IMG/VR virus record: IMGVR_UViG_3300025316_001101
Direction: 5' to 3' (one strand)
Source: a virus
Lineage: Duplodnaviria > Caudoviricetes
Length of the DNA: 64,000 nucleotides
The notes under the pieces are model-generated. The model searched no databases. It was given only the letters and a program-made list of their open reading frames with translations, and had not been told where the DNA came from. The translations under genes and the position numbers were made by a program. Positions 5,935 through 49,026 of the stretch are shown here, one piece after another. Positions within the stretch are counted from its first letter, which is position 1. Every line of letters begins with the position of its first letter.

Positions 5935-7383
5935 ATGTACCTAATGATCCAAAATCCCGGCTTTTCTCCTCCAGAATGCTACACCGTACTAGGTGTTAGT
6001 ACCACCCGAAATGCAGGTGTCGATGGAACGATTGGGAAATTTGGAAGTGGCAGTAAGCATGCTGTCAACTTACTTCTACGACACAAACTTTCTCCGATCA
6101 TCTATTGTTCCAATCTCCGTTTGGAATTCTGTACCGAAAAACAAACCGTCAACGATGGTCTCGGCATCACCGAATTTGGTGGCGTTTTTTGTAAAATGAG
6201 CGGTAAAGATCTAAGCGGTTCTCAAATTAAACGAACCAAAGATCTAGGCTTCGTTCTTGAATACGGCACCTACGACTGGACCGAATTGGCAATGGGCCTA
6301 CGGGAATTTGTTAGCAATGCCATTGATCGCACAATCCGAGAAGATGGCGAATTTCAAGAGGCCATTAAAAGCGGTCGCCTCTGCGTTAAGCTAGTAGAAG
6401 ATAATCAAGTACGAGCCAAAGAAGGCTATACCCGTGTGTTCGTGCCACTCTCGCCAGAAGTCCAGCGATTCTATGGAGAACTGCCACGACGATTCTTGCA
6501 CTTTTCCTCACCGGAACTGCTAGAACAAAAGATCCTGCCCAAGGGTGGCCGCAATCTTAGCACCGGTCGTGGAGCCATGATTTATAAACGTGGTGTTTTT
6601 GTTCGAGAAGTTGTAGATCAAGGACACCCTTCGCTCTTCGATTATAATCTCAACGATTTGGATCTTGATGAATCCCGAAACGTTGATGATTACGTTGTAC
6701 GAACACACGCTGCTTATGCTCTACGTGATGCCGATGCTAATATCTTGGCTACGGTATTTAAGAGCTTGACTGCTATGGAACAAATCTGGGAAGCGACTTT
6801 CAATAAATATGATTTGTCGCCATCTTGGGATAGCACCGCTAAAAAAGAAAAGCGAAAGGAGACCTGGAAAGCGGCTTGGAAACAAGCAGTTGGAGAAGGT
6901 ATTCTTTGCGGTGACTCGCAATTTGAAGCCGAAATGGTTTCTAAAAAGGGTTACGAAGCTAAAGTCATCAAGGCCACCAGTTGGGTAACTGCTGCCGAAG
7001 ATCACGAAGTAAACAGCAGCGTTTCAATCATGTCGGCCTTTGAAAAGGAAGGTCGAGAAATCATTCCTGCCACGCCCGATGCAACGAAAGCCGTAGATGC
7101 TGTATGGAGTTGGTTGGAAAAGCACAGCTTTACTTTCAACAAAACCAAACCGTATGTCAAGTGCTTCCGTGATAAAATGGAAGGCGGTGGTCGTGTCCTT
7201 GGATACTACTCGCCCGGTAGCGATACCGTGATGATCAACGAACAGCACGCCAGCGATGGCCAAAATAAAATGCTGCTCAAAACGGCCTTGGAAGAGATTA
7301 CACATTACGTAACCAATGCCACCGATATGTCACGGGACATGCAAGATTTCATTCTACGACTTGTTGTAGAGCAAAACGTGTAG
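5935..7383 (+). CDS. GHKL/HSP90-like ATPase, apparently circularly permuted
   Basis: IQNPG, GKFGSG, then LREFVSNAIDR; SD GGAG before ATG 5935. Confidence 0.7.
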   Translation: MYLMIQNPGFSPPECYTVLGVSTTRNAGVDGTIGKFGSGSKHAVNLLLRHKLSPIIYCSNLRLEFCTEKQTVNDGLGITEFGGVFCKMSGKDLSGSQIKRTKDLGFVLEYGTYDWTELAMGLREFVSNAIDRTIREDGEFQEAIKSGRLCVKLVEDNQVRAKEGYTRVFVPLSPEVQRFYGELPRRFLHFSSPELLEQKILPKGGRNLSTGRGAMIYKRGVFVREVVDQGHPSLFDYNLNDLDLDESRNVDDYVVRTHAAYALRDADANILATVFKSLTAMEQIWEATFNKYDLSPSWDSTAKKEKRKETWKAAWKQAVGEGILCGDSQFEAEMVSKKGYEAKVIKATSWVTAAEDHEVNSSVSIMSAFEKEGREIIPATPDATKAVDAVWSWLEKHSFTFNKTKPYVKCFRDKMEGGGRVLGYYSPGSDTVMINEQHASDGQNKMLLKTALEEITHYVTNATDMSRDMQDFILRLVVEQNV

Positions 7384-27706: not shown

Positions 27707-28479
27707 TTACAAAATCAACCTCAATTCACCCTTCATAACAGCCTTAATGTTACTAGTCTTCTTGCCAGTATTATGGTCTGTCACTCTGGAATCAATGAAA
27801 TTATATGTTCTGGTCTTATCTCCTCTACCAGCGTTTGCAAGTGATTGCTTGCGATTGGCATCGTATTTAGCAGCCATCTCTTTCAATCGTTTCTCATTTA
27901 CACGGGCTGTGATAATTCGCAACGCATGTTTGCGATTCTGGTGTTGATCACGTCCATCGATGACAACCGTGATGCCGGTTGGCTTGTGTTTAATACGAAC
28001 GCAAGATGCCGTCTTTTGGCGATGCTGTCCACCGGGGCCAGTGCCTATCATAGTGGTTACTTCCAATTCTGAATCTGGCAATGGCATACAATCCTGCTCT
28101 GGTGGCAAAGGAAGAACCGCTACTGCTACTACGCTAGTATGCCTTCTACCCTTGGTTTCTGTAGGCGGCACCCTCTGACAGATGTGCTTGCCAGATTCGT
28201 TCTTGAAACTTTTACCAATACCTTTGCCAGACATTTGCACTATTTTATGCCCAAATGAAGAATGTAAAATCTCTGCTTTGAAATTAAGAGACTGAACATA
28301 CCTAGCATACATGACAAGAAGCTCGTCCACGAATATTTTTGAGTCCTCTCCTCCTTCGCCAAATTGTATTTCAACGACGATCTCATGGGCACTGTCTAAG
28401 CTAAAGACAGCCCGGCAATCCCTTCAATTCTGCTTGTGGTCTTTCATTGCTAAAGTAACCTCCGATTGTGCTTGCTCAT
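27707..28479 (-). CDS. class I peptide chain release factor, RF1-type, lacking most of domain 1; predicted expression via two +1 frameshifts
   Basis: VPPT (PxT), RRHTS, GPGGQ, RTYNF..RVTDH; RF homology (EIVVEIQFGEGGED) continues upstream of track start 28330; SD-ATG at 28479 joins by CTT-TAG-C slips at 28449-28455 and 28400-28406 (256 aa). Confidence 0.88.
28400..28406 (-). promoter_or_regulatory. +1 programmed frameshift site 2
   Basis: CCG GGC TGT CTT TAG C; +1 enters RF frame. Confidence 0.7.
28449..28463 (-). promoter_or_regulatory. +1 programmed frameshift site 1
   Basis: CGG AGG TTA CTT TAG C: internal SD GGAGG 3 nt before CTT-stop-C, as in prfB. Confidence 0.78.
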
Positions 28480-47673: not shown

Positions 47674-48273
47674 TTAGCCCAATATAATCTTCAACATCTT
47701 TGCCATAATATCGGCCTGTTGAATCAACAAAGGCTTCAAATCTTCAATCATCTGTTCGTAATTCTTTTCACAATTAAGATGAATCTCTTCGCCTTTATAT
47801 ACAACCTTTAGTTCTTTAACTTCTTCAGACGGTCCTTTATGACCCAACAGATCTTTAACAGCCATACGAACCTCATCTAACTGCAATCCCAAGTTGACCA
47901 ACACCTGGGCTGCCACGCCTTCGCTCTCTCGTACCAATCCTAACAAAAGATGTTCCGTGCCCACATGATTGTCATTCAAAAGACGAGCCTCTTCCATTGA
48001 ATATTCAACCACCTTTTTTACTCTTGGTGTGTGTGGCAACTTGCCCATTGTGACCATATCTGGCCCTTGTTGGATTAATTTTTCTACTTCTAGTCTAACT
48101 TTGCGAAGATCGATATCAAACTGCTCCAACACATGAGCAGCAATACCCGATCCTTCTTTTATTAGACCCAAAAGAAGATGTTCGGTTCCAATATATTCGT
48201 GATTGAAACGCTGGGCCTCTTGATTGGCCAGCATCATAACTTTTCTAGCTCTATCTGTAAATCGTTCGTACAT
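47674..48273 (-). CDS. ClpC N-terminal (Clp repeat) domain-only protein
   Basis: MYERFTDRARKVM.LANQEAQRFNHEYIGTEHLLLGL, second EHLLLGL repeat, no AAA+ domain. Confidence 0.92.
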   Translation of the reverse strand: MYERFTDRARKVMMLANQEAQRFNHEYIGTEHLLLGLIKEGSGIAAHVLEQFDIDLRKVRLEVEKLIQQGPDMVTMGKLPHTPRVKKVVEYSMEEARLLNDNHVGTEHLLLGLVRESEGVAAQVLVNLGLQLDEVRMAVKDLLGHKGPSEEVKELKVVYKGEEIHLNCEKNYEQMIEDLKPLLIQQADIMAKMLKIILG

Positions 48274-48288
48274 AAAAAATCTCCTTAA

Positions 48289-48362
48289 TAGGTCACGTGG
48301 GAATCGAACCCACATTTACACTTTTAGAGAGTGTTGCTCTGAGCCAATTGAACTAGTGACCC
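48289..48362 (-). tRNA. amber suppressor tRNA (anticodon CTA)
   Basis: ACACT-CTCTAAA-AGTGT, intact D/T arms, G1.U72, A73. Confidence 0.88.
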
Positions 48363-48366
48363 TCAG

Positions 48367-48439
48367 TGGGCGATACAGGACTCGAACCTGTAACCCCCTC
48401 GGTGTAAACGAGGTGCGCTAACCATTGCGCCAATCGCCC
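48367..48439 (-). tRNA. tRNA-Val(TAC)
   Basis: CCTCG-TTTACAC-CGAGG. Confidence 0.92.
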
Positions 48440-48443
48440 TCAA

Positions 48444-48737
48444 TTATCCCTCTAGCATCCGTCTACAGTGATTGCTTATCTCTATAACTTCTGTCATTTC
48501 TTGCGGAGTCAACTCTATCCCGTTTTCGGCTGCCTCCATTCGTAAGCCACTCACTGTCGCCGTTGACATGTCTCCATGTTTCCACTCGCCACGCTCTAGT
48601 GATTCACTCACTTGTTTCAATAGCCGTATCATAGCTATGACACCCTTGGCAGCTTGCATCCTATTTGGGTATGCATTGCGAAACTTTTCATTATGGAGTA
48701 TTCTTCGTATTTTTCTTTTGTCAGTTGATGATAACAT
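48444..48737 (-). CDS. hypothetical protein
   Basis: ORF between tRNAs. Confidence 0.55.
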   Translation of the reverse strand: MLSSTDKRKIRRILHNEKFRNAYPNRMQAAKGVIAMIRLLKQVSESLERGEWKHGDMSTATVSGLRMEAAENGIELTPQEMTEVIEISNHCRRMLEG

Positions 48738-48931: not shown

Positions 48932-49026
48932 TGGGCGGGGCAGGGCTCGAACCTGCGACATTCGGAGCGTAATCAAGCATACACCTGATCCGTTTTCCGA
49001 TGCTCTGCCAACTGAGCTACCCGCCC
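48932..49026 (-). tRNA. tRNA (probably Val, TAC) with 22-nt hairpin insertion in the anticodon loop
   Basis: perfect acceptor, D and T arms; 29-nt loop with GATCAGG-TGTATG-CTTGATT. Confidence 0.65.

Follow-up and report, generated by a model that had tools for sequence, protein, structure and literature searches.

An amber-suppressor-type tRNA in a huge standard-code phage that carries a short RF1-type release factor

A huge phage that occurs in freshwater and lake metagenomes from several studies carries a structurally intact tRNA gene with the amber-reading anticodon CUA, uses the standard genetic code with TAG as a frequent stop, and has relatives in which CUA tRNAs recur together with the same short RF1-type release factor. 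On its sequence and predicted fold this tRNA is very probably functional. The reading that we favour, with moderate confidence, is that it is a working elongator-type reader of UAG that brings about partial read-through and not a new code, and that the huge phages with the RF1-type factor carry such tRNAs recurrently and under selection. The DNA analysed here (the window, 64,000 nucleotides) is the reverse strand of positions 195025–259024 of an IMG/VR record of 259,024 bp, hereafter G000, whose completeness is judged to be about 50%. Of the 28 tRNA genes that ARAGORN calls on the window's minus strand, one has anticodon CUA; the phage as represented by G000 has about 48 tRNA genes, including many duplicates and odd forms. 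The CUA gene and its immediate neighbours are:

48289–48362, minus strand: class I tRNA of 74 nt with anticodon CUA, amber-suppressor type (ARAGORN, Rfam RF00005, fold)
48366–48439, minus strand: tRNA-Val(UAC), 3 nt upstream of the CUA tRNA (ARAGORN; Rfam 71.1 bits)
47674–48276, minus strand: gene for a Clp_N-domain protein (NCBIfam ClpB/ClpA N-terminal region; homologues carry PF02861)

The intact cloverleaf that the initial annotation had read here, with the loop CT-CTA-AA, G1.U72 and A73, is recovered by ARAGORN, by the Rfam tRNA model (RF00005; score 62 bits, gathering threshold 29, E=2.4e-12, match over the whole model, 1–71) and by the minimum-free-energy fold, a canonical cloverleaf of -23.5 kcal/mol (z=-2.97) that 0 of 200 shuffles equal in stability. 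The acceptor stem GGGUCAC/GUGACCU contains G1.U72, G2-C71 and G3-C70 and is followed by discriminator A73, with no encoded CCA; the body has U8, G10-C25, a 10-nt D loop with G18G19, a 4-nt variable region and the T loop UUCGAUU; and the anticodon loop runs C32-U33-C34-U35-A36-A37-A38, with CUA at positions 34–36. The features by which we defined a canonical elongator tRNA (stems of 7/4/5/5 bp, U8, G18G19, U33, a 7-nt anticodon loop, a UUCRA T loop and a score above threshold) are thus all present. The combination of U33 with A36-A37-A38 is the pattern of efficient readers of codons that start with U, and the loop CUCUAAA is common to 13 of the 15 distinct CUA tRNAs in this record and its relatives. 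ARAGORN labels the gene ‘Pyl’ because of the anticodon alone. The hallmarks of tRNA-Pyl are a 6-bp anticodon stem, a 3-nt variable loop, a short D loop without G18G19 and one base between the acceptor and D stems; in the window's gene the anticodon stem is 5 bp long, the D loop retains GG, and both U8 and A9 follow the acceptor stem, and this assignment was therefore rejected. The synthetase PylRS (PylS_Cterm, TIGR02367) was not found in G000.

The surroundings of the gene suggest how it might be expressed. It probably shares one precursor with tRNA-Val(UAC), and the ribosome-binding site of the Clp_N gene, AAGGAG, begins 3 nt past A73, so that the CUA tRNA lies within a mixed tRNA and protein-coding transcription unit. 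A promoter and terminator scan around the CUA tRNA gave sites no more numerous than in shuffled sequence, and no RNA run turned up among the sequencing runs listed as containing the stretch.

TAG serves this phage as an ordinary stop codon. The two genes that end at 7383 and 8437, which had been read initially as TAG stops just before terminators, do have a TAG stop followed by a G+C hairpin and a T run, and TAG ends 25 of the 92 genes called in the window. Across G000 a greedy ORF call under the standard code (357 genes) yields 166 TAA, 113 TGA and 78 TAG stops (22% TAG), and coding density is 0.897 under the standard code and 0.889 with TAG recoded, which bears out for the whole record the earlier statement that there is no wholesale recoding. 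Since half of the genome is absent from G000, two complete relatives with the same short release factor were fetched. One of them, G007 (532,729 bp), has 56 tRNAs, including three with anticodon CUA and one with UCA; TAG ends 139 of its 711 genes (20%), its coding density is 90.7% under the standard code versus 0.911 with TAG recoded, and no 40-kb bin gains density under TAG recoding. The other is G022, which is 395,473 bp long and bears terminal repeats; it carries two CUA tRNAs, uses TAG to end 185 of its 569 genes (32.5%), and is 91.6% coding under the standard code versus 0.905 with TAG recoded. We would have assigned code 15 where in-frame TAG within genes went together with a rise in coding density of at least 5% on reading TAG as sense, and this combination occurs in none of G000, G007 and G022. 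G000 uses the standard code, and because the same picture is seen in the complete G007 and G022, the co-occurrence of CUA tRNAs and frequent TAG stops is a property of the group and not an artefact of a partial record.

Individual genes tell the same story. Among alignments of G000 with G007 that span an in-frame stop, two cross a TAG, five a TGA and five a TAA, and both of the TAG cases are read as artefacts because they are antisense to longer called ORFs; in-frame TAG was not found in conserved genes of G000. Four long pairs of same-frame ORFs in G000 are joined by TAG, and Pfam assigns them as separate genes: a methyltransferase-like ORF (weak Methyltransf_24 match, below cut-off) and a gp23-like ORF; an FkbM methyltransferase and an ORF with no assigned family; a thioredoxin and a metallophosphoesterase; and a fourth pair without a hit. 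The gp23-like capsid-family gene is uninterrupted by TAG and its own stop is TAG. Read-through past TAG in G000 would add a median of 11 codons, with 4 of 78 extensions reaching 100 codons, and these extensions are not longer than those after TAA or TGA. Nor is there any sign in G000 of adaptation to read-through, in that TAG-ending genes are indistinguishable from those ending in TAA or TGA in how far away the back-up stop lies, in which base follows the stop and in where they are placed, and TAG use shows no partitioning by genome region.

The same window encodes a release factor that, by its sequence, is RF1-type. Its gene and leader comprise:

27707–28479, minus strand: short RF1-type release-factor gene whose leader would need two +1 shifts (PF00472, PF03462; motif RVPPTETKGRRHTS)
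28449–28455, minus strand: slip site 1, CTT TAG C, with GGAGG and 3 nt before it; the 0 frame continues CAA TGA (28444–28446)
28400–28406, minus strand: slip site 2, TGT CTT TAG C; the 0 frame continues CTT AGA CAG TGC CCA TGA (TGA at 28383–28385)

Its NCBIfam scores rank prfA (192 bits) over prfB (135) and prfH (63), the tripeptide at the PxT position is PPT, and relative to RF1 the protein is shorter by about 125 residues at its N terminus. An identical release-factor protein is encoded on a contig of 373,808 bp. The leader reads ATG...CGG AGG TTA CTT TAG C, at which point a +1 shift would carry the ribosome on to ...GGC TGT CTT TAG C, where a further +1 shift gives the frame of the factor. 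As the initial annotation had it, decoding UAG in frame leads to a TGA, after one codon at slip site 1 and after five codons at slip site 2; the gate codon is thus the codon of the tRNA, and reading it in frame aborts the product. The arrangement shares with the prfB frameshift a Shine-Dalgarno-like element, a 3-nt spacer, CUU, a stop codon and C, as well as the logic that slow decoding of the stop favours the slip and that reading the stop lowers expression; it differs in that an RF1-type gene here has two UAG gates and that its relatives have mostly UGA. Among 8,164 bacterial prfB motifs TAG is never the stop, and prfA is without a programmed shift (PMC12421855). In prfB, anything that speeds up decoding of the gate codon competes with the slip, and the mechanism has been reviewed (PMC5009743). 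Since in-frame reading of UAG leads to a dead-end peptide, the CUA tRNA should compete with the +1 slip, and by analogy with prfB biology such competition between the suppressor and the frameshift in G000 is plausible.

Comparison of relatives nonetheless argues against a conserved pairing of gate and tRNA. The last gate is CTT TGA in G002, G005, G007, G010, G013, G016, G018, G019, G024, G026, G027, G029, G030, G031–G035 and G038; it is TAG in G000, G011, G012, G015, G021 and G036/G037, and TAA in G014. G006/G008 have an upstream TAG gate and TGA as the last, an upstream TAA gate is found in G009 and G021, and no gate site was found in G001, G017, G022, G023 and G032. CUA tRNAs are present in phages with TGA, TAA, TAG or no gate, and TAG gates occur in 4 of 13 CUA-positive records versus 5 of 27 others (p=0.44), so that UAG gates and CUA tRNAs do not travel together across relatives. 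Taken by themselves, the relatives' leaders (L003–L041) read mostly TGT CTT TGA, some with two to three mixed gates, and the gate codon is often mismatched to RF1-type specificity, UGA being RF2-specific.

The tRNAs themselves recur. Relatives were found via the short release-factor gene and each CUA tRNA was verified by ARAGORN; on this basis CUA tRNAs are present in 12 of the 39 related IMG/VR records with the short RF1-type gene, and in 9 of the 13 RF-bearing records whose completeness is at least 85%. The CUA pattern search behind these counts was not exhaustive, in that its first pass missed the tRNA of L023, the pattern also matches tRNA-Arg(UCU), and two likely matches in G014 were left out of the verified set. 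No class I CUA tRNA was found in the 15 control records retrieved through the gp23-like protein, of which 14 lack the RF domain, and seven of those 14 hold 6–18 tRNAs. The resulting association between release factor and CUA tRNA (nominal p=0.003–0.012) is to be taken as a lead, since genome size, tRNA number, record completeness and shared ancestry all confound it, and as no more than indicative because the control set is small and made of fragments. G000 itself has a second CUA tRNA outside the window:

G000:183724–183798, plus strand: second CUA tRNA, with C1-G72 and G73, about 11.2 kb past the end of the window and unrelated in sequence to the first
G000:185966–186679: RNA ligase gene (PF09414), between the second CUA tRNA and the shared downstream ORFs

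The ORFs downstream of this second tRNA have homologues that adjoin the CUA tRNAs of G009 and G038, so synteny has been kept across deep divergence, and L023 and L131 have CUA tRNAs that are clearly orthologous. Opal-suppressor-type tRNAs, with anticodon UCA (labelled SeC by ARAGORN), also occur, at G007:80837 and in L117 (G004), and TGA is a frequent stop in both genomes.

The copy in the window is less constant. Among DNA contigs from four studies, those of two (X2, X3) have an identical CUA tRNA and those of X8 do not extend over the locus; contigs encoding a 99%-identical Clp_N protein have the same tRNA pair, again identical. A strain contig from run X7 is 98% identical through the Clp_N gene and has 48287–48600, which takes in the two tRNAs together with the upstream ORF's 3′ end, exchanged for 217 other letters. 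The tRNA pair is thus a cassette that varies between strains, and the X7 replacement means that this copy of the CUA tRNA is dispensable or swappable. Neither a search of viral_contigs with the neighbouring Clp_N protein nor a search with the anticodon-arm pattern (NNN for the anticodon) found close relatives of the locus, and the window's CUA tRNA has no syntenic orthologue among the relatives sampled. The nearest CUA tRNA is one in G022 (75% identity) and the closest sense tRNA is the phage's own tRNA-Lys(CUU) (74%).

As to which amino acid the tRNA would carry, the initial annotation had called its identity not evident, and published identity rules do point two ways. Lys is favoured by U35 together with A73, and Gln by the weak 1–72 pair, G3-C70, G10-C25 and U35 (PMC9976931). 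Because the anticodon CUA supplies the U35 used by both LysRS and GlnRS, the inserted residue is, on these sequence features, most likely Lys or Gln. Across the family the discriminator base of the CUA tRNAs is A, G or U, so that more than one identity is likely. Neither GlnRS/GluRS nor a class IIb synthetase was found in G000, and a host enzyme therefore probably charges the tRNA. G007 does encode synthetases, namely GluRS, AspRS and class II LysRS, all above the NCBIfam cut-offs (loci L089:8529–10442, L109:10169–11833 and L099:8120–9673), and its GluRS has an N-terminal extension of about 200 residues.

Taking these observations together, we infer that the CUA tRNA is expressed and charged, that it reads through UAG to some degree and that the phage gains from carrying it. 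In the sequence of events that we propose, it would be transcribed with tRNA-Val(UAC) inside an island of phage tRNA and translation genes, excised by RNase P and RNase Z, completed by a nucleotidyltransferase that adds CCA, and charged, most likely by a host synthetase. It would then contend with RF1, both the host's and the short RF1-type factor of the phage, at every UAG, with partial read-through as the outcome and the code unchanged. The phage would tolerate this because its TAG-ending genes reach another stop after a median of 11 codons. Amber suppressors would be a recurrent and selected trait among huge phages with the RF1-type factor, so that these phages appear to bring both of the opposing players at UAG. 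Repression of the release factor at its two UAG gates would be a plausible side effect in G000 and not a conserved circuit. No benefit of read-through is visible in the genome of G000.

This account has to be weighed against others that explain part of the same evidence. The gene could be a by-product, in which a duplicated tRNA mutated to CUA and is now weakly expressed or uncharged, tolerated but not selected, or has a non-decoding role. The large and duplicate-rich tRNA complement of the phage is compatible with such an origin, as are the fact that one point mutation turns Lys-CUU, Gln-CUG or Glu-CUC into CUA (with the phage's own tRNA-Lys(CUU) as the nearest sequence), the existence of the X7 strain that lacks the locus, and the heterogeneous acceptor and discriminator features of the relatives' CUA tRNAs. 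A by-product sits poorly, however, with a gene that has kept all structural and loop features of an efficient decoder, with two or three CUA tRNAs per complete genome, with orthologous and syntenic CUA tRNAs in distant phages, and with the lack of any in related controls that do bear tRNAs; we regard it as unlikely, though not negligible. The initial annotation had instead proposed a dedicated and possibly timed switch, whereby abundant tRNA(CUA) would read the gates, abort synthesis of the factor and lock in read-through, and scarce tRNA would let frameshifting make RF1 and bring termination back. Several observations speak for it: both gates are CTT-TAG-C with a nearby 0-frame TGA, the first with GGAGG 3 nt before it; UAG is the common point of gate codon, RF1-type factor (PPT, prfA as best match) and tRNA; phages with the factor are enriched in CUA tRNAs; and suppressor tRNAs reportedly reduce prfB frameshifting (Curran and Yarus, J Mol Biol 1988). 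The extension to a conserved or timed switch is not supported, since the gates of relatives are mostly TGA, which a CUA tRNA is unable to read, and in some relatives are missing, and co-occurrence fails (p=0.44). Furthermore, G000 has no gene with in-frame TAG that could profit from read-through as an output; one strand holds both the tRNA and the release-factor gene, with 20 kb between them and within a single tRNA-rich stretch (window 27.7–64 kb), a layout that gives no hint of separate timing; the near-identical X7 strain has other sequence at the tRNA locus; and, by the context studies of Bossi and Miller, UAG followed by C is reportedly a poor context for suppression and termination alike. 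A dedicated switch thus seems to us rather improbable.

Recoding deserves the same scrutiny, because late genes in the missing half of G000 might use TAG as sense in the manner of code 15, or the tRNA might be a first step towards such a code or a relic of it, following the model of Borges et al. It is true that G000 is only about half complete, that recoding in phages is often confined to late genes and that suppressors are found in standard-code relatives of recoded phages (bioRxiv 10.1101/2021.08.26.457843). Yet the complete genomes with three and two CUA tRNAs have no bin that gains density, the gp23-like gene lacks an internal TAG and itself ends in one, TAG is not depleted in G000, G007 or G022, stop-spanning alignments are no more frequent for TAG than for TGA or TAA, and those for TAG are antisense to longer ORFs, and the factor that accompanies the tRNA is RF1-type, unlike the RF2 of TAG-recoded phages; recoding is accordingly very improbable. 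A bolder proposal goes beyond our favoured reading of a partial UAG reader under selection. One can imagine that deliberate carriage of one to three suppressors together with an RF1-type factor devoid of domain 1 sets UAG read-through on the phage's own terms, whether to harm UAG-ending proteins of the host or of competitors while sparing its own, or to keep UAG decoding going should host RF1 be disabled, and that the suppressor here feeds into production of the factor. We offer this as a conjecture and think it unlikely.

It is informative to place these observations beside known systems. Phage CUA tRNAs are known from the TAG-recoded Lak and crAss-like phages (bioRxiv 10.1101/2021.08.26.457843), which resemble the phage described here in having a canonical-looking CUA tRNA amid translation genes and a host presumed to use the standard code. 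They differ in having in-frame TAG in structural and lysis genes, a gain in density under code 15 and RF2 as the partner, whereas this phage group has no in-frame TAG, ends 20–33% of its genes with TAG and carries an RF1-type factor. Where a recoding phage does encode a factor, it is RF2 with TAG recoding and RF1 with TGA recoding (bioRxiv 10.1101/2021.08.26.457843; PMC13037316), and RF1, RF2 and tmRNA are all known in huge phages (PMC7162821). Suppressors in standard-code phages have been reported sporadically and taken to mark a move towards recoding where a lineage has become poor in the stop concerned (bioRxiv 10.1101/2021.08.26.457843). The TGA suppressor of the standard-code Agate phage (Borges et al.) is likewise a stop-reading tRNA in an unrecoded genome, but one interpreted as the stage that immediately precedes recoding, its lineage having few such stops; the tRNA-Sup(UUA) of megaphage G (PMC12484599) also belongs to an unrecoded genome, but reads UAA. 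What sets the present group apart from both is that amber suppressors, frequent TAG stops and an RF1-type factor recur together across deeply diverged huge phages. With the amber suppressors of E. coli (supE tRNA-Gln CUA and those derived from tRNA-Lys) the phage tRNA has in common the anticodon and, as proposed, partial read-through against RF1; those are point mutants of host tRNAs, whereas the phage gene is natural and without a close sense-codon parent (best 74%). The CUA tRNA itself is therefore of a known kind, and its setting is a variant outside the recoding model.

Phage suppressor tRNAs are currently explained as tools of recoding, partnered with a release factor that is blind to the recoded codon. 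A clade of huge environmental phages with amber suppressors, often more than one to a genome, with TAG at 20–33% of gene ends and with a UAG-reading RF1-type factor does not fit that model; the literature searched yielded no treatment of amber suppressors alongside RF1 in a phage of standard code and no stated function for the combination. If the read-through is real, a fifth of the phage's proteins and all UAG-ending host proteins would be partly extended during infection, which turns the reshaping of termination by large phages into a testable question. What most merits following up is that amber suppressors recur with an RF1-type factor in huge phages rich in TAG stops. For annotation, it also follows that a CUA tRNA alone is insufficient to call a phage recoded.

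The translation genes of this phage include some further unusual forms. A 95-nt tRNA at 48932–49026 on the minus strand of the window (Rfam 56.8 bits) is missed by ARAGORN at its default settings and, when introns are allowed, is seen as a gene resembling tRNA-Val(UAC) whose anticodon arm bears a 22-nt insert. A tmRNA is encoded beyond the window at G000:84822–85173 on the plus strand, with the tag peptide ANTFAVAA, and G022 also has a tmRNA whose tag differs. Finally, at G000:188112–188336 on the plus strand, again beyond the window, a tRNA-Val(AAC) stands between two tRNA-like ARAGORN calls whose ‘anticodons’ have only two bases (ca), and these are tRNA look-alikes that are incapable of decoding.
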